From a virus (taxonomy: Duplodnaviria; Heunggongvirae; Uroviricota; Caudoviricetes), in IMG/VR virus record IMGVR_UViG_2675903433_000022: a stretch of DNA of 64,000 nucleotides; one strand, 5' to 3'. Both the position numbers and the translations under genes were made by a program. This document shows, piece by piece, positions 4,878 to 55,517 of this stretch. How positions within the stretch are numbered: position 1 is the stretch's first letter; every line of letters starts with the position of its first letter. Under the pieces are notes generated by a model. It was not told the origin of the DNA. It did not search any database and saw nothing but the letters and a program-made list of their open reading frames with translations.

Positions 4878-5415
4878 GGGATGCGAAGTTATGACCAAAT
4901 TTGGAAAGCTGGAAGCTCATTTGCTGACTCGTAACTACCGCCATGATATACACCCATATAGACAGTGGATTGATGAAAGCGAAGGAGTTGTTACATTCCC
5001 TCTATACAGGTTTGATGGGATGTTGGCCGGGTATCAGACATACAGACCAGGCGCTCCTAAGCAGCATAGCAATCCGAAGATGGCCCGGTATTTCACACGA
5101 GCGCACGGCAGACAGCTACTATGGGGTACCTATCTTCCTTTAAAAGATGGACCGATATGGATAACTGAGTCGATTTTTAAAAGTGCAGCAGTGCACAACG
5201 CGGGCGGAAATTCGTGGGCGCTGTTAGGCTCGACTTTCTCAGCAGGATTACGTCGTCAACTGGCAATGCTGCCGTATGACTTTCGTGTAATAGGTGACAA
5301 TGATGCGGCTGGCGAATCACTTGTGAAGTCTTTCGGAAAAGGTTTTGTGGCACCGGATCTTGACGAGCTACAACCACATGAAGTGTCTAATTTGATTTTT
5401 AGCCATAGCCAATAA
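4852..5415 (+). CDS. Hypothetical protein
   Basis: Track ORF; alternative ATG at 4891 with GAGGGA RBS. Confidence 0.55.
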   Translation: MVINGKCYEGCEVMTKFGKLEAHLLTRNYRHDIHPYRQWIDESEGVVTFPLYRFDGMLAGYQTYRPGAPKQHSNPKMARYFTRAHGRQLLWGTYLPLKDGPIWITESIFKSAAVHNAGGNSWALLGSTFSAGLRRQLAMLPYDFRVIGDNDAAGESLVKSFGKGFVAPDLDELQPHEVSNLIFSHSQ

Positions 5416-5431
5416 GTATCACTTCTCCATT

Positions 5432-5452
5432 AAGGCCACAACTAGTGGCCTT
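5432..5452 (+). terminator. Stem-loop aaggccacaactagtggcctt at end of early operon
   Basis: Perfect inverted repeat immediately followed by the AAACAAtTTGTTT palindrome. Confidence 0.5.
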
Positions 5453-5465
5453 AAACAATTTGTTT
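5453..5465. promoter_or_regulatory. 13-bp palindrome AAACAAtTTGTTT (recurrent early-region motif)
   Basis: One of at least 11 intergenic copies read in the sequence. Confidence 0.45.
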
Positions 5466-5538
5466 TCTACGTTTTCTTATTTGAGAAAATCACGTTGTTG
5501 GCAGCTCATAGGCTTGTTGTTATACATAGCTGTATAGA

Positions 5539-46276: not shown

Positions 46277-49200
46277 ATGTGGTACAGGGAAGGTACTATC
46301 ACATTTACACAGGGCAGCAATACTCTGGTTGGGGCAGGGACAGCCTGGAACGTAACAGCTAATGGTGTGTTGCCGGGGATGATCGTCATTGGCCCCGACA
46401 ACAAGCTGTATGAGATCAAGCGCGTAACCAGTGATACGAACATTGTTCTCTCAGAACCTTATACCGGCGAAACTCAGTCTGAAGTTCCGTGCCGAATCAT
46501 TACGACCTATGAAGGCGACTTAACACAGTTTAGCGCGCGCTTTACTGCACTAATGTCGCGTATGTCGGCTGATTCCAAGTCCATGCGCAGTTGGTTGACT
46601 GCTCTGGATGAGGTGACAATCGAGCGTGAAGACGGTACAGAAGTGACCGTTAAGCCGCTAATGCAGATCGTCAACGAGCACAACGAAAACGTTGAGTGGT
46701 ATAAAAATAACACTGACGCGATTAATGCTGCTGGCGACAAAGCTAGTGAGGCGGCGGCCAGTGCTGCCGCAGCAGCAGAAAGCGCCAATACCGCTGGAGA
46801 AAAAGCCTCTCAAGCGTCTCAAAGTGCATCCGCTGCGGCATCTTCACAAAGTGCTGCAAGTGCGAGCGCAACTGCTGCGAAAAAATCTGAAACGAACGCA
46901 CAAGCTGCAAAAGAAGCGGCAGCAGAATCAGCATCTGTAGCGTCGGCCAAAGCATCGGAGGCAGCAACATCTGCGTCCAGTGCCTCTGCGTCTAAGGATG
47001 CAGCCAAAGCATCAGAGACTAACGCTTCATCGAGTGCAAACGCGGCGGCATCATCGGCAACAGAAGCTGCAAATTCGTCTAAGGCAGCAAAAACGTCAGA
47101 GACAAACGCAAAAGCATCTGAAACGGCAGCCGAACAAAGTGCATCGTCTGCAAACAGTTCGAAATCTGCGGCAGAAGCATCAGCGAGCGCAGCCTCAGCA
47201 AGTGCGGTTAGTGCTTCATCAAGTGCAACAGCGGCAGGAAAATCTGCGGATAGTGCATCGTCATCAGCGACAATAGCTACCACAAAAGCGACAGAGGCGA
47301 CAAGTCAGGCTACAGCTGCTAAAAATTCAGCATCGGCAGCAAAAACCTCTGAAACAAATGCAAAGGTCTCAGAAGACAATGCGGCTTCCTCTAAGGCGGC
47401 AGCTGCTGAATCTGCAAGTTCTGCGTCTGCATCAGCCACCTCAGCATCCGCTTCAAAAGATGAGGCGACCAAGCAGGCATCAGCAGCGAAGGGTAGTGCT
47501 TCAACGGCATCCACGAAAGCAACAGAGGCGGCAGGCAGTGCGACGGCTGCATCTCAGAGCAAAGCTGCTGCTGAATCCGCTGCGACCCGTGCAGAAGCTG
47601 CCGCTGATCGTGCTGAAGAGATTGCCGGTGCAGTTGCGATGGAAGATGCAAGCCTTACCACCAAAGGTGTTGTGAAACTTAGCAGTGCTGTCGACAGCAC
47701 CAGTGAATCTTTAGCCGCGACACCAAAAGCAGTTAAGACCGCATATGATAATGCTGAAAAACGACTACAGAAGGATCAGAATGGTGCTGATATCCCCGAC
47801 AAGGGCCGCTTCCTGAATAACATTAATGTTTACAGCAAAGGTGAAGTGGATAAGAAAAAGGGGATGCGATACGTTGTGGTAAATGCCCCGGCGGGTGTCC
47901 AGGAAGGTAAATATTATCCGTTAGTGATAAAAAGGAATGACAGCCATCGGGCATCCCGCGTTGTCATTTCAACGCCAAGTCGCACAGCTAATCACAGAAT
48001 GAATAACTGTGAGTTTAATGGTTTTGTTTGCGCAGGCGGCTGGACGGACCGGGGTAGCTATGCCTGTGGTATGTTCTGGGCTTATTCATCATCGGAACGC
48101 GCTATTCATTCCATTCTGATGAGTAATAAAGGCGATACCGTAGACAGCGTATTCTATATAGAAGGTGGGGCATTTCCCGTAGAGGTCTTTTTAGAAGAAG
48201 GACTCTCCGTTACTGCACCTGCTTCTGATTATGTTGTTGCTGAAACGACTTATAAATTTGGCGCAACTGATCCTTATTCTGAATCAGTTGCGGTAAATTT
48301 AATTTTAGATTTTAAACAAGGCAATGGATTTTATAGTTCGTATCCTGTTTTGAGTAAGTCAGACATTAGCGGTAATAAGGTTTACGCTAATGATGAAGTT
48401 ATTGTCCGTAGTCAGAATGCGTTAAGGATGATTGCTGGCGATTACGGTGTCATATGGCGAAATGATGGAGCAAATACTTACTTGCTGATGACTGATAAAG
48501 GCGACCAGTACGGTGGCTGGAACGGTCTTCGACCATTTGCTGTAGATAACGCAACAGGTGAAGTTACGATCAATACACCACTTAATTCTCCAAAAGGGGT
48601 TAAGGGGAATTCTGATACAGCTACGAAACTTCAGACTGCAAGAAAAATATCCGGTGTTCCATTTGATGGCTCTACTGATATCACTTTAACCGCCGCGCAT
48701 GTTGCCGCTTTCGCAAGAAGAGCAACAGGGTCATATGCGGATGCTGATGGTGGCGTGCCGTGGAATGCTGAATCTGGTGCTTACAATGTAACTAGAACAG
48801 GCGACAGTTATATTCTTGCCAACTTTTATACCGGTGTAGGTAGTTGCCGTACGCTTCAAATTAAAGCTCACTATAAAAATGGTGGTCTGTTCTACCGTTC
48901 CTCAAGAGATGGCTATGGTTTTGAAAGTGGTTGGGAGCAGGTTTACACGACTGGATTTATGCCTCAGCCGGCTGATATAAACGCACCAACCGCTGCCGCT
49001 GGATGGTTAAATAGTGGTAACGGAACGGCATTTACGACTGCTCAATTTATAACTTGGCTAAATAATCAGGGGGCATTTACAAACAAACATTGGATCGCAC
49101 GGTGCTCATGGACTTACGCCAACAATAATTATATAGACGACACTGGTTGCGGTAGGATCGATCTATCTGGTTCCGTGATTGAGGTGTTTAGTAATAAGGC

Positions 49201-50695
49201 AACAAGCCACTACACTATTCGTGTTACAACGACAACAACATCAGGTCATGGTGGTGTTAATAATGCGGAATTTATTTATGTGTACAATGGGAGTGATTAT
49301 GCGCCAGGCTGGCGTCGTTCTTATAACACCAGAAACAAACCAACAGCTTCTGATGTAGGAGCATTACCGCTTTCAGGTGGCACATTATCTGGGGGGTTAA
49401 CGTCTTCTGGTGAGATCGTTTCAAAATATGCAAATGGTTTCCGCATTGCTTACGGTAACTATGGGTTCTTTATCCGTAATGACGGCGGCAGCACATATTT
49501 CATGCTAACAGCATCAGGAGATACGTTAGGTTCATGGAACAGTTTGCGACCGATTACAATTAATAATACCAGCGGTGTTGTGTCTATTGGTAATGGACTA
49601 AATGTTACTGGTGGCGTAAATGGTAGCTTGAATGGCAATGCTTCAACAGCTACGAAGTTACAAACAGCGAGAAACATCAATGGTGTTAAGTTTGATGGTT
49701 CAGGCGATATCAATATTAATACATTGGTTTCTCGTGGCCGAGTTACGGCTTTAAGCGGTTCTACTCAAGGTACTGCTGGCATTCAAATGTACGAGGCGTA
49801 CAACAATAGCTACCCGACCACGTATGGCAACGTATTGCACATGAAAGGGGCGAGTGCTGCTGGTGAGGGCGAGTTGCTTATTGGCTGGAGTGGTACGAGC
49901 GGTGCACATGCGCCGGTTTTCATTCGCTCCCGAAGAGATACCACTGATGCGGCATGGTCAGCGTGGGCGCAGGTATATACTGCTAAGGATTCAATTCCTG
50001 GTGTGAATACAACCGGTAATCAGAACACTACTGGTAATGCCGCAACCGCCACAAAATTGCAGACAGCAAGGAAAATTGCTGGTGTGGCGTTTGATGGCTC
50101 TGCCGATATTACTTTGACTGCGGCTAACCTTAATGCCTATACGAAAACAGAGGTAACAAACCTTCTAAGTTCCTATGCAACCAGATCATCACTGACAGGC
50201 TATAGTGGCAACCTGGATATTATTGCTGAAACACTGGTTGTCAAATCAGGCGGTAGTGGAGGGTTTGCTATATGGGATATTGGCACAACTACTAGCGGTG
50301 CCAATATGTACATTGATCCAAACCCAGGTATCAATACAGTTTGGCGTTCAACATCTTCAAGGCGCTATAAAAAGGATATTGAAACATTACAAGATCGATA
50401 TGCTGATGAACTTTTGTCATTAAGACCTGTTTGGTATCGTTCAATTTGTCGAGGTGACCGAAAGGATTGGGGGTATTACGGCCTTATTGCTGAAGAGGTT
50501 GGTGAGATTGCCCCGCAATATGTCCATTGGCGTGAACCAACAAATAATGATTCTCCAGAAGATATTTCCTCAAATGGTATGGTCGCTGAAGGGGTGATGT
50601 ATGAGCGTTTGGTTGTACCACTCATTCATCATATTCAGCAATTGACCAAAAGGGTTGAGGAGCTTGAAACGAAGTTAAATTCACCTAAAGAATAA
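46277..50695 (+). CDS. Long tail fibre with C-terminal intramolecular chaperone (S74-type)
   Basis: 1472 aa; Ala/Ser-rich low-complexity region; three ATKLQTARKIxGVxFDGSxDI repeats; C-terminal YKKDIETLQDRYADELLSLRPVWYR resembles self-cleaving chaperone domains. Confidence 0.8.
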   Translation: MWYREGTITFTQGSNTLVGAGTAWNVTANGVLPGMIVIGPDNKLYEIKRVTSDTNIVLSEPYTGETQSEVPCRIITTYEGDLTQFSARFTALMSRMSADSKSMRSWLTALDEVTIEREDGTEVTVKPLMQIVNEHNENVEWYKNNTDAINAAGDKASEAAASAAAAAESANTAGEKASQASQSASAAASSQSAASASATAAKKSETNAQAAKEAAAESASVASAKASEAATSASSASASKDAAKASETNASSSANAAASSATEAANSSKAAKTSETNAKASETAAEQSASSANSSKSAAEASASAASASAVSASSSATAAGKSADSASSSATIATTKATEATSQATAAKNSASAAKTSETNAKVSEDNAASSKAAAAESASSASASATSASASKDEATKQASAAKGSASTASTKATEAAGSATAASQSKAAAESAATRAEAAADRAEEIAGAVAMEDASLTTKGVVKLSSAVDSTSESLAATPKAVKTAYDNAEKRLQKDQNGADIPDKGRFLNNINVYSKGEVDKKKGMRYVVVNAPAGVQEGKYYPLVIKRNDSHRASRVVISTPSRTANHRMNNCEFNGFVCAGGWTDRGSYACGMFWAYSSSERAIHSILMSNKGDTVDSVFYIEGGAFPVEVFLEEGLSVTAPASDYVVAETTYKFGATDPYSESVAVNLILDFKQGNGFYSSYPVLSKSDISGNKVYANDEVIVRSQNALRMIAGDYGVIWRNDGANTYLLMTDKGDQYGGWNGLRPFAVDNATGEVTINTPLNSPKGVKGNSDTATKLQTARKISGVPFDGSTDITLTAAHVAAFARRATGSYADADGGVPWNAESGAYNVTRTGDSYILANFYTGVGSCRTLQIKAHYKNGGLFYRSSRDGYGFESGWEQVYTTGFMPQPADINAPTAAAGWLNSGNGTAFTTAQFITWLNNQGAFTNKHWIARCSWTYANNNYIDDTGCGRIDLSGSVIEVFSNKATSHYTIRVTTTTTSGHGGVNNAEFIYVYNGSDYAPGWRRSYNTRNKPTASDVGALPLSGGTLSGGLTSSGEIVSKYANGFRIAYGNYGFFIRNDGGSTYFMLTASGDTLGSWNSLRPITINNTSGVVSIGNGLNVTGGVNGSLNGNASTATKLQTARNINGVKFDGSGDININTLVSRGRVTALSGSTQGTAGIQMYEAYNNSYPTTYGNVLHMKGASAAGEGELLIGWSGTSGAHAPVFIRSRRDTTDAAWSAWAQVYTAKDSIPGVNTTGNQNTTGNAATATKLQTARKIAGVAFDGSADITLTAANLNAYTKTEVTNLLSSYATRSSLTGYSGNLDIIAETLVVKSGGSGGFAIWDIGTTTSGANMYIDPNPGINTVWRSTSSRRYKKDIETLQDRYADELLSLRPVWYRSICRGDRKDWGYYGLIAEEVGEIAPQYVHWREPTNNDSPEDISSNGMVAEGVMYERLVVPLIHHIQQLTKRVEELETKLNSPKE
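46720..47650 (+). repeat. Low-complexity Ala/Ser/Lys-rich repeat region within the tail-fibre gene
   Basis: Repetitive ASxAAxSA units; generates spurious ORFs on both strands. Confidence 0.4.
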
Positions 50696-50755: not shown

Positions 50756-51010
50756 ATGAGCTATGGTGCACAGGTATGGTCGCCATCAAGACAGGAGATG
50801 GTCGATGCGTTGGCCCCTGTTTATTACCTCGATTATTTTACTCCCTCTGGTTCTGGAAGTAGAACATATGAGGTTGAGGCGGGATTGGGAATCGACTATT
50901 ACATAATGGACGTAACCAATGGGAAATACACAAGTCTTACGGTTTCTGGAAATACCATTTCATGGTCTGGAGCTAGTGGCAATTTAAACATATTGGTTTT
51001 TCAAAAATAA
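50756..51010 (+). CDS. Hypothetical tail-fibre-associated protein
   Basis: 84 aa; AAGGA RBS. Confidence 0.5.
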   Translation: MSYGAQVWSPSRQEMVDALAPVYYLDYFTPSGSGSRTYEVEAGLGIDYYIMDVTNGKYTSLTVSGNTISWSGASGNLNILVFQK

Positions 51011-51618
51011 TGTACGGAAGCAAGATATATCGATCTGACGGGAAGGTCTGGATGTCTCCTTCTTTGTCTCCTATCGTTTTTCAGAGAAAGCAGGTTGTTT
51101 CTTTGTCTGGCGGGACAGAGTTTAACACCCAAATATCTCCAGATCGTTCACCGATGATTTTTGTTGCCTATTCGAAAGCTGTTTCATTAATAGCCAACAG
51201 AATAGTGCGTAACAACCAGGTGATTTACAGTTTCGGAGGTCAGGGTAGCGACTCTAGTGCCACGATATACGTATTTTCGAAAGGTATAGCCAAAAAAGAA
51301 ACTTGGGGCATGAGTTTTTTCAATGCGCGAGGAGAGGAGATCTATAATACGGCAAATATCCCACTTTCATTTACCTTTCTTAATAATACGGAGTGGAACA
51401 GTTCTGGAGGGCATGTTTTTGATTACCCGCCAGCGATAATCCCAACATATGCAAATGTGTTCGCGGTTCCAGTACCGGGCGGGGCCATGACAATGGTTTA
51501 TGGATATGCGGCATATGGAAATACTGTTAGTTCCATATTCGTAAACCAACTTAATGGCGGCCATAGTTTTAGCGTAAATGGCAGAGTACCGGTAATAAAT
51601 AGAAATCTGTATAACTGA
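51010..51618 (+). CDS. Hypothetical tail-fibre-associated protein
   Basis: 202 aa; TAATG coupling. Confidence 0.5.
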   Translation: MYGSKIYRSDGKVWMSPSLSPIVFQRKQVVSLSGGTEFNTQISPDRSPMIFVAYSKAVSLIANRIVRNNQVIYSFGGQGSDSSATIYVFSKGIAKKETWGMSFFNARGEEIYNTANIPLSFTFLNNTEWNSSGGHVFDYPPAIIPTYANVFAVPVPGGAMTMVYGYAAYGNTVSSIFVNQLNGGHSFSVNGRVPVINRNLYN

Positions 51619-51628
51619 TGAGTAAACG

Positions 51629-51859
51629 ATGAAAAGATTATTTCTAACAATAGCTGTTGTTCTCTCTCTTACTGGCTGTCAGAAATTGCCGACACCCATA
51701 TGTTATGGTGAGGCTATCATTGGTGGACAGGAGACAGTCATACCTATATATGCTGTTAAAAAGGTTAACGGCTATACCTTATACAAAGCGGGTAGCATCT
51801 ATAACTGGCGATGGGTTGGAGTAGGTGCTTTCTCATCAGTGCGTTGCAATGCTGAATGA
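51629..51859 (+). CDS. Small lipoprotein, candidate superinfection-exclusion (Llp/Cor-like position)
   Basis: 76 aa with signal peptide and lipobox LTGC; located directly downstream of the fibre genes. Confidence 0.6.
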   Translation: MKRLFLTIAVVLSLTGCQKLPTPICYGEAIIGGQETVIPIYAVKKVNGYTLYKAGSIYNWRWVGVGAFSSVRCNAE

Positions 51860-51879: not shown

Positions 51880-51940
51880 ACAAGAAGGTGAAATGTGATA
51901 TAAATCCGCCATCCCGATTTGACTTTTCATGGAGGAAAAC

Positions 51941-52264
51941 ATGTCGAACGAGATGGCGGGCGTTACAACAGAGCAAGTTGAGCGTATTGCCGCGATCGTT
52001 GCTCGGGAGGTTGTTGGCAAATTAGGCAAAGAGCTACGTGAAGAAATTGGCCAGGAGGTCAATGATCAGCTGAAAACCTACTTTGGTGATATGACCCCGG
52101 CGCAACATAGTATTCAACACTCCAACCTGGACAAGCTCCTTAACCGGTTAGATTCCATCTCCAGTGGGTTCTTTGGCGGCATTGTTTCTAAAATAACGTC
52201 GTTCATTATTACCGCACTGCTTTTGGGGTTAGCCGCGTATGGCGTAAAAAATGGACTGCAATAA
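51941..52264 (+). CDS. Membrane protein with single C-terminal TM segment (possible holin-like protein)
   Basis: GGAGG RBS 5 nt before ATG; C-terminal ITSFIITALLLGLAAYGV. Confidence 0.45.
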   Translation: MSNEMAGVTTEQVERIAAIVAREVVGKLGKELREEIGQEVNDQLKTYFGDMTPAQHSIQHSNLDKLLNRLDSISSGFFGGIVSKITSFIITALLLGLAAYGVKNGLQ

Positions 52265-52277
52265 CAGGAGATCAAGG

Positions 52278-52970
52278 ATGAAGACTCCGAGAGGCATTCG
52301 TAATAATAACCCCGGTAATCTTGATAAAGGATCACCGTGGCAAGGTCTGGTTGCGAATCCAGACGAACCGCGTTTTTGCACGTTTAAAGACCCTGTTTGG
52401 GGGATTCGTGCGCTGGCGGTGACTCTAATTACCTACCACGACAAACGTCGCGCAAAAGACGGCTCAAGTATCGATACCATTCGTGAAGTTATTGAACGTT
52501 GGGCACCGCCGAATGAAAACAACACTGACGCCTACATTAATGAGGTGTCTAAAGCCGTTGGTGTAACCGCAGACATGATCATCGATCTGCATGATTACGA
52601 CATCCTTCGACCTTTGGTTGAGGCAATCATTCGCCACGAGAATGGCCGGGGTCCGCTAAAAACGCTGAACACCTGGTATGCGGCAGAAGTTATTGAGGAA
52701 GGTCTGCGTCGAGCTGGCGTTGTTAAGCCGGTGAAAACCGTGAAGGCTGTTCCTGTAACTAAAGAAACAGCAGGCGCAACTGTTACAGCAGGTATTGGTC
52801 TGGCGCAACTGGCCGATGTTATGCCGCAGGTTTCCGCTGCTATGGATAAGGCACAAGGCCATATCTCTAGCGGGGATACAGTACGCATCATCTTCGGTAT
52901 TGCCACTATTGTTGTGGCCGGATTCATTGCCTGGTCGCAGGTAAGAAAACACCAGAAAGGGATGGTCTAA
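52278..52970 (+). CDS. Lysis-module protein, possible cell-wall hydrolase with C-terminal membrane anchor
   Basis: AGGAG RBS; hydrophobic C-terminus IIFGIATIVVAGFIAW; position between putative holin and spanins. Confidence 0.5.
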   Translation: MKTPRGIRNNNPGNLDKGSPWQGLVANPDEPRFCTFKDPVWGIRALAVTLITYHDKRRAKDGSSIDTIREVIERWAPPNENNTDAYINEVSKAVGVTADMIIDLHDYDILRPLVEAIIRHENGRGPLKTLNTWYAAEVIEEGLRRAGVVKPVKTVKAVPVTKETAGATVTAGIGLAQLADVMPQVSAAMDKAQGHISSGDTVRIIFGIATIVVAGFIAWSQVRKHQKGMV

Positions 52971-52971
52971 T

Positions 52972-53223
52972 ATGCTAGGCAGCCTGATGACAAAGCTAAA
53001 AGTTGCTTTGATTACGCTGGCTGCCGTTCTTTTCGTTCTGGTCGGCGCTTACACGATGGGCGGGAATGCAGCACGACGAGCAATGGAAGAGAAGGCAAAA
53101 CAGGAAGACAGAAAACGACTTCAAAGCACAGTGGACGTCAAAAATGAAACACTTGATGAGTTACGGCGCAAGGATGCTTCTTCTGTTCATCATGAGTTGC
53201 ACAATAAGTGGTTGCGTGATTAA
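52972..53223 (+). CDS. i-spanin (Rz-like)
   Basis: 83 aa, N-terminal TM helix then charged coiled region. Confidence 0.6.
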   Translation: MLGSLMTKLKVALITLAAVLFVLVGAYTMGGNAARRAMEEKAKQEDRKRLQSTVDVKNETLDELRRKDASSVHHELHNKWLRD

Positions 53224-53374
53224 GCCTCAACCCGCTGGTGTGCTTTTCTGCGATGCGGCTACACCGCTATACATCAGCCGTGATGATCTCATGACCGAAG
53301 AGACTGAAAGAGAGGTGCTTTTTCACAATATGATAGGGGAGCGATTGTGTGGATGGGGCAGAAAAGTACCATAA
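53144..53374 (+). CDS. o-spanin (Rz1-like lipoprotein), overlapping the i-spanin gene in the +1 frame
   Basis: MKHLMSYGARMLLLFIMSCTISGC signal with lipobox; start lies inside the Rz-like gene. Confidence 0.55.
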   Translation: MKHLMSYGARMLLLFIMSCTISGCVIKPQPAGVLFCDAATPLYISRDDLMTEETEREVLFHNMIGERLCGWGRKVP

Positions 53375-53551: not shown

Positions 53552-53935
53552 ATGCTGAACGAAAAACGTTCTATACAAACAATTCGCGATTGCACGAGTG
53601 TTATCGCAACTCATGTGCTGAATAAGCGCAAACTTGAGGTGCGTAAACTTAACAACGATGCGACTGCGCCAAAAGACACTCGCTTCATCGTAACTTTCAA
53701 AGACGATGTTGAGAATGCTGGTGCCAGTGTAAAACCGTTGGCTGAAGCGATTTTCCTGAACGATCGTGTTCGTTTCATTGTGAAGCCAGCAAAACAATAC
53801 CCTGAATTAGCACGGTTTAGTGACCAATTCTCTGAAATTATTGAGAGTGCAATTCGCCGCTTTCTTAATACTCATGGTAGCATTGTCAGCAATACAACTG
53901 CTGATGGTACTGCTCTAAGATGGCACCTACACTAG
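53552..53935 (+). CDS. Hypothetical protein
   Basis: 127 aa; RBS ctaaggtggac. Confidence 0.5.
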   Translation: MLNEKRSIQTIRDCTSVIATHVLNKRKLEVRKLNNDATAPKDTRFIVTFKDDVENAGASVKPLAEAIFLNDRVRFIVKPAKQYPELARFSDQFSEIIESAIRRFLNTHGSIVSNTTADGTALRWHLH

Positions 53936-54672
53936 AACGCACATACTCTAAAAATCTTTATGAGTTTCCTCACCGTGGGGAAACTCGCGTTTCACGTTTT
54001 GGCTACCTCATCAACGAAGCATCGCTTTTCAAAATATCTGAAATAACCATTATCGAGCCTGATGATGATATCTGTCTGTATATCCTGATGGAGAAAGTTG
54101 GAGCACGAGATCAGGGTGAACTGATGGACTTCATTCTGGACAGAGGCGAAGATGGAATGTCTGATTCGGACATTATTCAAGCAATTCTGCGTTCCGACAT
54201 GCTCGATCAGAGCAGAAACACGATAGCAGGCAGAATTGCCTTGCGTGAATACACATTCATCGAGGATGGGGTAGAGATTGACTGCTATCAGATTGCAGGT
54301 GTTGAAACAGAAAGAGCAATAAGGCAAAGGGGACTGTGCAACCTCACGTATCGCTTCCTCCTTCATTGGTACGAACATCTTGTCTGTGATTACAATCAGA
54401 CCATTCCTGGCGCAAAAATCTGGGCCGGTCCATTAATGCGAACAGGTGATGTAAGAATTTACAACGCAAAAACTGAGACGTTCGAGGATGTGTTAGGCGA
54501 ATATGGGATGGGAAAAGAAACCGGCTTTTTGCCGTGGAACAGAGGATTGTTACTTGATCCAGAATTAAGCTCTTGGTTTCCAAATAAGGTGCAAGTTAAC
54601 GTTGAGAAATTTATCGTACTTATCATCTCCCGCAAAACAAGAACCCCAGTTGGTTTATATCTAAAAGATTAA
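53920..54672 (+). CDS. Hypothetical protein
   Basis: 250 aa, overlaps upstream gene by 16 nt. Confidence 0.55.
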   Translation: MAPTLERTYSKNLYEFPHRGETRVSRFGYLINEASLFKISEITIIEPDDDICLYILMEKVGARDQGELMDFILDRGEDGMSDSDIIQAILRSDMLDQSRNTIAGRIALREYTFIEDGVEIDCYQIAGVETERAIRQRGLCNLTYRFLLHWYEHLVCDYNQTIPGAKIWAGPLMRTGDVRIYNAKTETFEDVLGEYGMGKETGFLPWNRGLLLDPELSSWFPNKVQVNVEKFIVLIISRKTRTPVGLYLKD

Positions 54673-54677
54673 CAATT

Positions 54678-54700
54678 AGGCGACTTCTGTCGCCTTTTTT
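54678..54700 (+). terminator. Rho-independent terminator
   Basis: aggcgac-ttct-gtcgcct hairpin plus TTTTTT. Confidence 0.65.
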
Positions 54701-54848: not shown

Positions 54849-55517
54849 ATGACCAAGATCTTTGTGGTTGGCGGCACAAAGGGCGGGCCTGGCAAATCCA
54901 CTGTTGCCCAGCAAATTGCCGTTTGCCTGAAAGTCAAAAAGAAGAAGAAGGTTTATATCACTGATATAGATATTCAGCGCACGACAACAAGCTGGTGTGA
55001 AGACCGTCGACAGAACGAAGACCTTGAGCTGATTCCTTTTGCCTACGTTCAGGATGACATCATTAAGCACCTAAAATCGCTTCAGGGTAGAGCTGAGTTT
55101 GTAGTGGTAGATGCTGGTGGCTTTGACTCCGAAATTCAGCGACAAGCGATGCTGATGGCCGACGTTATCATTATCCCGCTGCGTCCTAAGCGTCGTGATT
55201 TGAAATCTCTGCGTGACATCGATCCTATTATCGACAATGTTCGTAATGTAAACGATAAAGTGAAGGTCCGCGCGGTCATGAACCAGTGCCCGGCTTTGCC
55301 ATCACAAGTGTCTCGCATTCTGGCGGCTAAAGAGATTGTCGAGACGTTTGGCATCGAGTCTGCGCCAGTCAATCTATATAACCGCAACGTCTACGATGAT
55401 GCGGAAGAGTCTGGTCGTTCTATCTTCGAAATGACCGGTAGCGAGCGCGACAAAAAGGCTGAAGCCGAGTTTGAAGAATTTGTAGATTATCTGTTGAGTC
55501 TGGAGGAAGAAGAATAA
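54849..55517 (+). CDS. ParA/ParF-family partition ATPase
   Basis: Deviant Walker A KIFVVGGTKGGPGKST; 222 aa (small type Ib ParA size). Confidence 0.85.
   Translation: MTKIFVVGGTKGGPGKSTVAQQIAVCLKVKKKKKVYITDIDIQRTTTSWCEDRRQNEDLELIPFAYVQDDIIKHLKSLQGRAEFVVVDAGGFDSEIQRQAMLMADVIIIPLRPKRRDLKSLRDIDPIIDNVRNVNDKVKVRAVMNQCPALPSQVSRILAAKEIVETFGIESAPVNLYNRNVYDDAEESGRSIFEMTGSERDKKAEAEFEEFVDYLLSLEEEE

Follow-up and report, generated by a model that had tools for sequence, protein, structure and literature searches.

The 64,000-nucleotide (nt) stretch of viral DNA analysed here (the window; IMG/VR record IMGVR_UViG_2675903433_000022, class Caudoviricetes) carries four tightly packed, co-directional genes on the + strand between positions 51941 and 53374. 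They very probably form a complete late lysis module, located past the tail-fibre and accessory genes. The second gene encodes a 230-residue protein that, judged by its sequence features, is a member of the Enc34/M4Lys class of endolysins and would be held at the inner membrane by its own C terminus, and the last two genes encode an overlapped spanin pair. The first gene, annotated as a holin in relatives, encodes a 107-residue protein with a single C-terminal transmembrane domain (TMD). This protein is best described, on comparative grounds, as a member of an uncharacterised family of lysis-cassette proteins, phrog_5093. We give about an even chance to a role as timing partner or regulator of the membrane-lesion module and judge this role somewhat likelier than that of a stand-alone holin. 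The features of the cassette are as follows.

51941-52264, + strand: gene of the 107-residue protein, annotated 'holin' in relatives (phrog_5093 match, hydropathy)
52106-52120, + strand: codons of the HxxxH motif, H56-S-I-Q-H60, invariant in the phrog_5093 family alignment
52181-52246, + strand: C-terminal TMD of the 107-residue protein, residues ~81-102, its most conserved part among close relatives
52278-52970, + strand: gene of the 230-residue Enc34/M4Lys-type endolysin, with PHA02564 catalytic domain, linker and C-terminal membrane module
52638-52640, + strand: GAG codon of E121, which corresponds to Glu131 of Enc34, the residue proposed as catalytic (mapped through the 7q47 alignment)
52749-52967, + strand: C-terminal membrane module of the endolysin, residues 158-230 (hydropathy, invariant columns, helices of the structural model)
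52972-53223, + strand: gene of the 83-residue inner-membrane spanin (i-spanin), with N-terminal TMD followed by a charged helical tail (phrog_1026)
53144-53374, + strand: gene of the 76-residue precursor of the outer-membrane spanin (o-spanin), with lipobox ISGC (phrog_1275)

All four products matched families of the PHROG database, with E-values of 8e-69 for the 107-residue protein, 3e-88 for the endolysin (phrog_873, 'endolysin'), 2e-23 for the i-spanin and 9e-23 for the o-spanin. By these values the cassette is not a chance arrangement of reading frames. A Pfam scan of the same four products gave no match above threshold. A GGAGG sequence precedes the ATG at 51941 by 5 nt, and an AGGAG lies upstream of the endolysin start at 52278. 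The endolysin gene starts 13 nt past the end of the first gene, and the i-spanin gene starts one base past the endolysin stop codon. A preliminary description, made from the sequence of the window, had proposed a four-gene lysis cassette in which two C-terminally anchored proteins are followed by an overlapped Rz/Rz1-type spanin pair. All of these elements were found again at the same positions, and the reading as a lysis cassette holds in the light of the PHROG matches, the conservation of the region and its annotated counterparts in the phages Cyrano and SSU5.

The DNA of the region shares 95.5% identity with Escherichia phage PhiR41_1, 93.9% with Cyrano and 81.8% with Salmonella phage SSU5, values that identify the window as part of an SSU5-like phage-plasmid. 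SSU5 (SSU5_026-030) and Cyrano (CYRAN_22-25) have the same four genes in the same order and with the same spacing, annotated as holin, endolysin, Rz and Rz1. With 82-94% identity of the DNA and 96-100% identity of the first gene product (100% to the Cyrano 'Holin' and 96% to the SSU5 'putative holin'), there is essentially no difference from the window. The cassette as a whole is thus already known and annotated in public records of SSU5-like phages. All 80 related IMG/VR loci have it intact, and in each of them the endolysin gene begins 15-18 nt after the gene of the 107-residue protein. Both spanin genes are present in 78 of these loci, and the remaining two are contig ends. Further downstream in the window, a gene for a ParA-like partition ATPase (54849-55517, + strand), annotated as ParA in both Cyrano and SSU5, fits a plasmid lifestyle.

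The assignment of the second gene product as an endolysin had been called positional, and neither of the first two proteins had been credited with a motif that could be named. The latter statement was wrong: the 52278-52970 product contains RNNNPGN, ERWAPP and RHENG, the signature of the PHA02564/Enc34 endolysin domain. The assignment itself now has behind it a strong homology to a type that has been characterised by experiment. A phmmer comparison of residues 3-151 with the crystal structure of the Enc34 endolysin (PDB ID: 7q47) gave an E-value of 2.6e-54 at about 60% identity. In an AlphaFold2 (AF2) model based on 32 homologues, the catalytic domain reached a pLDDT (predicted local distance difference test) of about 90, and a Foldseek comparison of this model with 7q47 yielded a target-normalised TM-score of 0.82 at 60% identity. 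For Enc34, Glu131 is the proposed catalytic residue, and Trp79 and Tyr95 are proposed to be catalytically important (PMC8943055). According to the 7q47 alignment their equivalents are E121, W75 and Y86, all three of which are invariant across 32 members of the endolysin family. Taken over its full length, including the C-terminal module, the protein is about 55% identical to the 'lysis protein A' of chi-like phages.

The Siskin/M4Lys/Enc34 class is marked by an unusual membrane domain at the C terminus (PMC6498227, PMC7143992, PMC8943055), and the corresponding module of the window protein consists, in order, of a linker motif, a weak helix (residues ~164-188), a loop with the sequence ISSGD, the TMD (~202-222) and a basic tail, RKHQKGMV. 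The TMD is the one strong hydrophobic segment of the protein, with a Kyte-Doolittle maximum of 2.07, and the Gly/Ala/Thr-rich helix ahead of it is weaker, with a maximum of about 1.1. The AF2 model places helices at residues 175-194 and 199-226 with low confidence. Within the module, residues P159, T161, E163, G174, Q177, P183, A188, S198, A218 and Q221 are invariant among the 32 homologues, which shows the module to be strongly constrained. The protein is probably anchored by the same kind of two-helix module as Enc34 and Siskin, and the combination of a weak and then a strong helix with a basic C-terminal tail would fit an N-in/C-in hairpin under the positive-inside rule. Hydropathy analysis showed no N-terminal signal or signal-anchor-release (SAR) segment, and the N terminus, MKTPRGIRNNNPGN..., is hydrophilic. 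The hydrophobic segments of the protein are all C-terminal, and classification as a SAR endolysin was accordingly rejected. Every feature of the Enc34/M4Lys class that could be examined was present, and the sequence places the protein in this class.

The linker motif, VPVTKET (52749-52769, residues 158-164), includes the invariant positions P159, T161 and E163, in homologues that are 56-90% identical overall. Such conservation is unexpected in a linker, and the motif may be a processing or docking site.

What is known of the mode of action of this class comes from two relatives. Purified M4Lys lacking the TMD degrades peptidoglycan and has glycosidase activity. Full-length M4Lys alone lyses Escherichia coli, the lysis is not blocked by azide, and truncation of the TMD abolishes it. 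M4Lys lysis is independent of Sec and of the upstream gene, ORF_37, whose product is non-toxic and cannot export the truncated enzyme (PMC7143992). In the case of Enc34 ORF39, toxicity was caused by the full-length protein only (PMC8943055). By analogy with these relatives, the window protein would degrade peptidoglycan and lyse the cell from within in a TMD-dependent manner. The first step of the proposed mechanism is well supported: the 230-residue product would be a peptidoglycan glycosidase of the Enc34/M4Lys type, with a fold resembling the lysozyme alpha lobe and E121 as the proposed catalytic residue. It would be made in the cytoplasm without an N-terminal export signal and tethered to the inner membrane by a weakly hydrophobic helix and a true TMD, with the basic tail on the cytoplasmic side; in the relatives, this module is indispensable for lysis from within.

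The endolysins Enc34 ORF39, M4Lys and that of Siskin belong to chi-like phages (Casjensviridae) and share with the window protein the catalytic domain, the two-helix module, the ISSGD loop and the basic tail. The endolysin gene also occupies the same slot in the chi-like phages, between a gene for a small membrane protein and overlapped spanin genes with a homologous o-spanin. On the other hand, the upstream partner is unrelated, and the chi-like phages are flagellotropic siphoviruses of about 60 kb, whereas the SSU5-like element is a phage-plasmid of about 108 kb. In Aeromonas phage LAh_7 (locus L104 of the survey described below, 1453-2577), an Enc34-type endolysin with a C-terminal TMD is followed by overlapped spanins. 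No gene for a small membrane protein lies immediately upstream of this endolysin; the preceding gene encodes a protein of 473 residues. This arrangement suggests that an anchored endolysin can operate without an adjacent partner.

The 107-residue protein was analysed as a member of its family. Its only PHROG match is phrog_5093, annotated as of unknown function, and it has no Pfam match; the same holds for all 31 members scanned. Searches of a phage collection and a word-indexed protein search returned close relatives only, and those situated on long contigs were SSU5-like elements of about 110 kb. Another 59 relatives at most emerged when 1.8 billion representative sequences were searched with a profile, 59 being the full count of this search. 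The family alignment was made from the window protein and 30 relatives (24-68% identical to it), 28 of which are distant (24-56%). Literature searches found no experimental report on any phrog_5093 member.

The window protein consists of an N-terminal helical domain of about 75 residues with a net charge of -4, a juxtamembrane motif, a single hydrophobic segment at residues ~81-102 (Kyte-Doolittle maximum 2.02) and a tail of about 5-7 residues. This architecture is common to all 31 aligned sequences, whose N-terminal domain is helical and net acidic (mean charge -3) and whose single TMD, at the C terminus, leaves only a short tail. The family motif reads YFGDMxPxxHxxQHxRxxxLLxxxDxxSxxF. G49, H56 and H60 are invariant in the alignment and D71 is nearly so; distant homologues of 24-44% identity keep both the architecture and the G...HxxxH motif. 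The two invariant histidines form an HxxxH pattern, located on a predicted helix some 25-30 residues ahead of the TMD. The pattern may point to a protein that binds metal or senses pH where the membrane faces the cytoplasm.

The genomic contexts of the homologues were then compared, with loci numbered L001 onward. The distant contexts came mainly from contigs that encode homologues, because a locus search with a narrower alignment gave close SSU5-like loci only and a search with a degenerate DNA pattern gave three viral contigs only. In nearly every informative case the phrog_5093 homologue is the first gene of the lysis cluster, and it is often translationally coupled to the next gene. Where distant homologues are coupled to endolysins of three other classes or to annotated holins, in unrelated phage backgrounds, the interval is 8 nt or less, or the genes overlap by up to 13 nt. 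The endolysins of these clusters differ. In L006-8, L012, L013/14 and L100 the homologue is followed by a Peptidase_M15_3 endolysin and then by a small membrane protein for which hydropathy indicates one or two hydrophobic segments; i-spanin-like genes come next in L007 and L013. In L101 a GH108 plus PG_binding_3 endolysin and then a 58-residue TMD protein follow the homologue. L011 and L096/97 contain the homologue, a three-TMD phrog_8226 'holin', a phrog_669 endolysin with a SAR-like N terminus, and spanins. In L102 the homologue precedes a PF13272 Holin_2-3 protein, and after this comes an enzyme that begins with a hydrophobic segment (signal- or SAR-like) and by eye resembles a lytic transglycosylase. 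Small two-TMD proteins follow the homologue in L009 and L095. Finally, L010 has the homologue, an Enc34-type anchored endolysin and an i-spanin, as in the window. Its association with four unrelated endolysin classes marks phrog_5093 as a genuine component of lysis cassettes.

The cassettes also differ in their second membrane protein. Eleven cassette types have no anchored endolysin, and in 10 of them a separate small membrane protein is encoded downstream of the homologue in the same run of genes. It has one to three hydrophobic segments by hydropathy and mostly adjoins the homologue or the endolysin; the small membrane proteins of L007, L009, L013, L095, L100 and L101 have 58-102 residues. 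In the cassettes whose endolysin bears the membrane module itself (the window and L010), there is no separate gene for a small membrane protein. The small membrane proteins encoded after the M15 endolysins at L007 4791-5066 and L100 3905-4123, on unrelated contigs, have the motif GP.N..I..WWF.ER in common. They appear to be a family of their own, with a weak match to phrog_6637 (unknown function), and are candidate holins partnering phrog_5093.

Two known proteins invite comparison with the 107-residue protein. LysB of the chi-like phages, the proposed class IV holin (Siskin; ORF_37 of BSPM4), occupies the same slot and has 109-113 residues with a single TMD and a helical domain of about 70 residues. 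Its TMD, however, is N-terminal (predicted N-out/C-in) and not C-terminal as in the window protein, and it contains no histidine and hence no HxxxH motif. Homology between phrog_5093 and LysB was rejected in view of an hhalign probability of 1.2% and the opposite polarity. The releasin of phage Mu, gp25, is encoded in a lysis cluster; it is a small protein, tethered to the membrane and with an anionic domain in the cytoplasm, that is needed for membrane exit of the anchored endolysin and is no holin (PMC9239132). The window protein is likewise membrane-tethered, has a net acidic domain that would be cytoplasmic, and adjoins a membrane-anchored endolysin. On the other hand, the anchor of Mu gp25 is N-terminal (N-out/C-in), whereas the TMD is C-terminal in all 31 phrog_5093 members, and the Mu endolysin is of the N-terminal SAR type, whereas that of the window is anchored at its C terminus. 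Membership of the Mu gp25/DUF2730 family was rejected (no Pfam match, hhalign probability 0.2%), and the likeness to the Mu releasin is functional speculation by analogy. A unimolecular spanin (u-spanin) of the T1 gp11 type was rejected as well: the C-terminal TMD is present, but the N terminus is hydrophilic and there is neither a lipobox nor a cysteine.

The preference for a timing or regulatory role derives from three observations: the non-holin behaviour of the M4Lys partner, the arrangement in LAh_7, and the co-occurrence of phrog_5093 with either a separate small membrane protein or an endolysin-borne membrane module. In the second step of the mechanism that we infer, the 107-residue tail-anchored product, its helical and mildly acidic domain facing the cytoplasm, would set at the inner membrane the time at which the anchored endolysin gains access to the wall. 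The lesion module of SSU5-like and chi-like phages would be the C terminus of the endolysin itself. On this circumstantial evidence, the regulator would resemble an antiholin or, in its function, the Mu releasin.

The alternative that the protein is a genuine holin and forms the hole itself, in spite of an unusual topology in which one C-terminal TMD is joined to a large cytoplasmic N-terminal domain, is a serious contender, though we consider it the less probable of the two. Such a protein would oligomerise, trigger, and release or activate the endolysin, and the extra small membrane proteins of the distant cassettes would be antiholins or pinholins. This reading agrees with the position of the gene, first in the cassette and directly upstream of the endolysin gene, and with the annotation in Cyrano and SSU5; with one TMD and an adjoining endolysin gene, the product has the small-membrane-protein character of canonical holins (classes I-III). 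The TMD is, moreover, its most conserved part among close relatives, members of the family precede soluble endolysins (M15_3, GH108) that need a membrane lesion to escape, and the window cassette has no other candidate membrane protein besides the endolysin. Nevertheless, the protein matches no recognised holin family in Pfam or PHROGs, and its C-terminal tail, GVKNGLQ, has one lysine and lacks the charged hydrophilic character that is typical of holins, so that by these sequence features it falls outside the canonical holins. A dual start resembling that of lambda S was also tried and rejected. The upstream in-frame ATG, at 51929, lacks a Shine-Dalgarno sequence and is not covered by the PHROG alignment, which begins at the Met of 51941, and Met5 is at a variable position in the relatives, leaving no conserved dual-start motif. 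Most distant cassettes have a separate small membrane protein in addition, and the chi-like gene in the same slot behaved as a non-holin. The comparative data thus make it secure that the first gene product, which the preliminary description had taken for a holin on position, is a lysis protein, and the same data are compatible with a hole-forming holin as well as with a regulator.

Several points weigh against the proposed mechanism. The presence of a co-occurring membrane protein does not tell which of the two partners is the holin, as holin/antiholin pairs occur either way, and the context survey comprises about 13 distinct cassette types. A fusion of the endolysin to a recognisable holin finds no support in the sequence: a database search with the module gave fragments of the same endolysin and no free-standing homologue, and a profile comparison of the C-terminal module with nine small membrane proteins of related cassettes gave 2.3 bits or less. 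The AF2 model of the 107-residue protein, with a pLDDT of 47, was too poor for a fold search. The published topology predictions conflict: that for Siskin is N-in/C-in with two helices, that for M4Lys N-out/C-in. The lysis data for M4Lys and Enc34 come from strong overexpression, and their authors state that the holin-independence may be an artefact (PMC7143992, PMC8943055). All function ascribed here to the cassette of SSU5-like elements draws on homology and on experiments with relatives.

A wider proposal, which we put forward tentatively and regard as rather unlikely, is that phrog_5093 represents an unrecognised, widespread class of lysis-timing factor that acts on a separate lesion module, and that the endolysins of SSU5-like and chi-like phages are natural endolysin-holin fusions. 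The factor would act from the cytoplasmic face, and in most phages the lesion module would be a free-standing small membrane protein, the candidate holin. If this is true, the SSU5-type pair would be a compact system for studying the way in which an endolysin anchored by its C terminus gains access to the wall. The mechanistic interest lies in the route of Enc34/M4Lys-type endolysins to the periplasm and in the role of the gene upstream of them, and the comparative result on phrog_5093 (the HxxxH motif, four endolysin classes, a second membrane protein) could redirect the annotation of the SSU5 'holin'. SSU5-like phage-plasmids are common in Enterobacteriaceae and some are reported to carry resistance genes, for example CTX-M-15 (PMC5427194), which lends the control of their lysis some practical relevance.

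Another explanation for the 107-residue protein, as a membrane protein outside lysis, is improbable. It could be the product of an accessory moron gene, acting for example in superinfection exclusion like the Cor-type lipoprotein encoded upstream. The accessory membrane genes phrog_557, phrog_425 and Cor phrog_1119 do lie between the tail fibre and the cassette, and phrog_5093 has no assigned function. The Cor-like gene, however, is a variable moron outside the cassette that is present in 22 of the 80 related IMG/VR loci, whereas the gene of the 107-residue protein is present in all 80, always 15-18 nt before the endolysin gene. The distant homologues, in unrelated phage backgrounds, are in addition coupled to three other endolysin classes or to annotated holins.

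It is very improbable that the 52278-52970 product belongs to the virion and degrades the wall at infection, with the endolysin encoded elsewhere. Its catalytic domain is indeed also part of internal virion proteins, of tape-measure proteins and of proteins annotated as 'structural protein P5', and the window protein also matches Gp29, a core protein of phage E1004 (9vvp). The virion and tape-measure proteins, however, match residues ~1-146 only, while the proteins that match the membrane module too have 226-273 residues and lie in lysis-cassette positions in every inspected locus. M4Lys and Enc34 ORF39 lyse cells from within (PMC7143992, PMC8943055), a protein with a C-terminal TMD is not readily imagined inside a virion, and the SSU5 annotation lists no second endolysin or holin. 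A match to a virion structural family, which the preliminary description had named as the finding that would speak against an endolysin, thus exists superficially, for the catalytic domain. The full architecture, a catalytic domain and membrane module encoded between a small membrane protein and spanins, is by these comparisons the endolysin form.

The third step of the mechanism, well supported by homology, would fall to the spanins: the overlapped i-spanin/o-spanin pair would bridge the periplasm and disrupt the outer membrane once the wall is degraded. The i-spanin has a TMD at residues ~9-29, followed by a charged segment, and its periplasmic part comprises about 54 residues. The o-spanin gene begins 172 nt into the i-spanin gene and therefore in its +1 frame (172 = 1 mod 3). 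The two genes overlap by 80 nt (53144-53223), and the o-spanin gene runs 151 nt beyond the end of the i-spanin gene, for which reason the architecture is overlapped and not embedded. The o-spanin signal sequence, MKHLMSYGARMLLLFIMSCTISG, ends directly ahead of the lipobox Cys; the lipobox I-S-G-C spans residues 21-24 (nt 53204-53215). The mature lipoprotein has 53 residues with two further conserved cysteines, and the lipobox and the two cysteines are conserved in SSU5, Cyrano and the chi-like phage FSL SP-088. The phrog_1026 and phrog_1275 matches, the +1 frame and the ISGC lipobox corroborate the Rz/Rz1-type pair as first described.

FSL SP-088 has an o-spanin, unannotated, that shares 41% identity (E=9e-19) with that of the window. 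The i-spanin is weakly similar, at 27% identity, to the i-spanins of the chi-like Serratia phage JS26 and of FSL SP-088 (E=2e-6 and 2e-4, respectively), and its C-terminal motif (K/D)W(L/M/V)R is common to L010, JS26, XAP3 and LAh_7. In SpaninDB, SSU5 is listed as an overlapped pair with an o-spanin of the Chi family and a singleton i-spanin (PMC6139136). By sequence comparison the window pair is a standard two-component overlapped spanin with two short subunits and an o-spanin of the Chi family. With the P2 LysB/LysC architecture and the Chi family it shares the N-terminal TMD of the i-spanin and the +1-frame start of the o-spanin gene inside the i-spanin gene. The o-spanin of Mu is described as Pro-rich (PMC9239132); that of the window is, by eye, not proline-rich.

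The annotated 'Rz1 spanin' of Cyrano (L001, 5383-5502) has 39 residues and a GTG start (VLFCDG...) and lacks both a signal peptide and a lipobox. A longer in-frame open reading frame at 5287-5502 (MRRAVKYVRKMLLPFIVSCMISGC...) matches the 76-residue o-spanin of the window, and the GenBank start of the Cyrano gene looks mis-called. The SSU5 RefSeq record contains two alternative o-spanin coding sequences.

Directly upstream of the cassette, 51629-51859 (+ strand) encodes the Cor-type protein, a 76-residue lipoprotein with lipobox LTGC that matches the superinfection-exclusion family phrog_1119 with E=8e-30. Before it, after the tail fibre, lie 50756-51010 and 51010-51618 (+ strand), whose products match phrog_557 ('outer membrane protein') and phrog_425 ('membrane associated protein'); SSU5_023 and SSU5_024 stand in the same order. 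A promoter and terminator scan showed no enrichment over shuffled sequence and no clear promoter ahead of the cassette. The sole convincing hairpin with a T-run in the region lies downstream, at 54678-54695, with a 7-bp GC-rich stem. Between the spanins and this hairpin are two conserved genes, 53552-53935 and 53920-54672 (+ strand), that match phrog_2594 and phrog_3307 (function unknown). As they end at the hairpin, they may share a late transcript with the lysis genes. Cyrano, in contrast to these two genes, has a KacT-type toxin-antitoxin pair on the opposite strand downstream of its cassette, from which the region 3' of the spanins is taken to be variable.

The tail-fibre protein encoded at 46277-50695 (+ strand) has 1472 residues and a very long Ala/Ser-rich low-complexity stretch near its N terminus. 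It contains three segments of the form ATKLQTAR..G..FDGS..I, and its C-terminal end resembles, by eye, an intramolecular chaperone domain.

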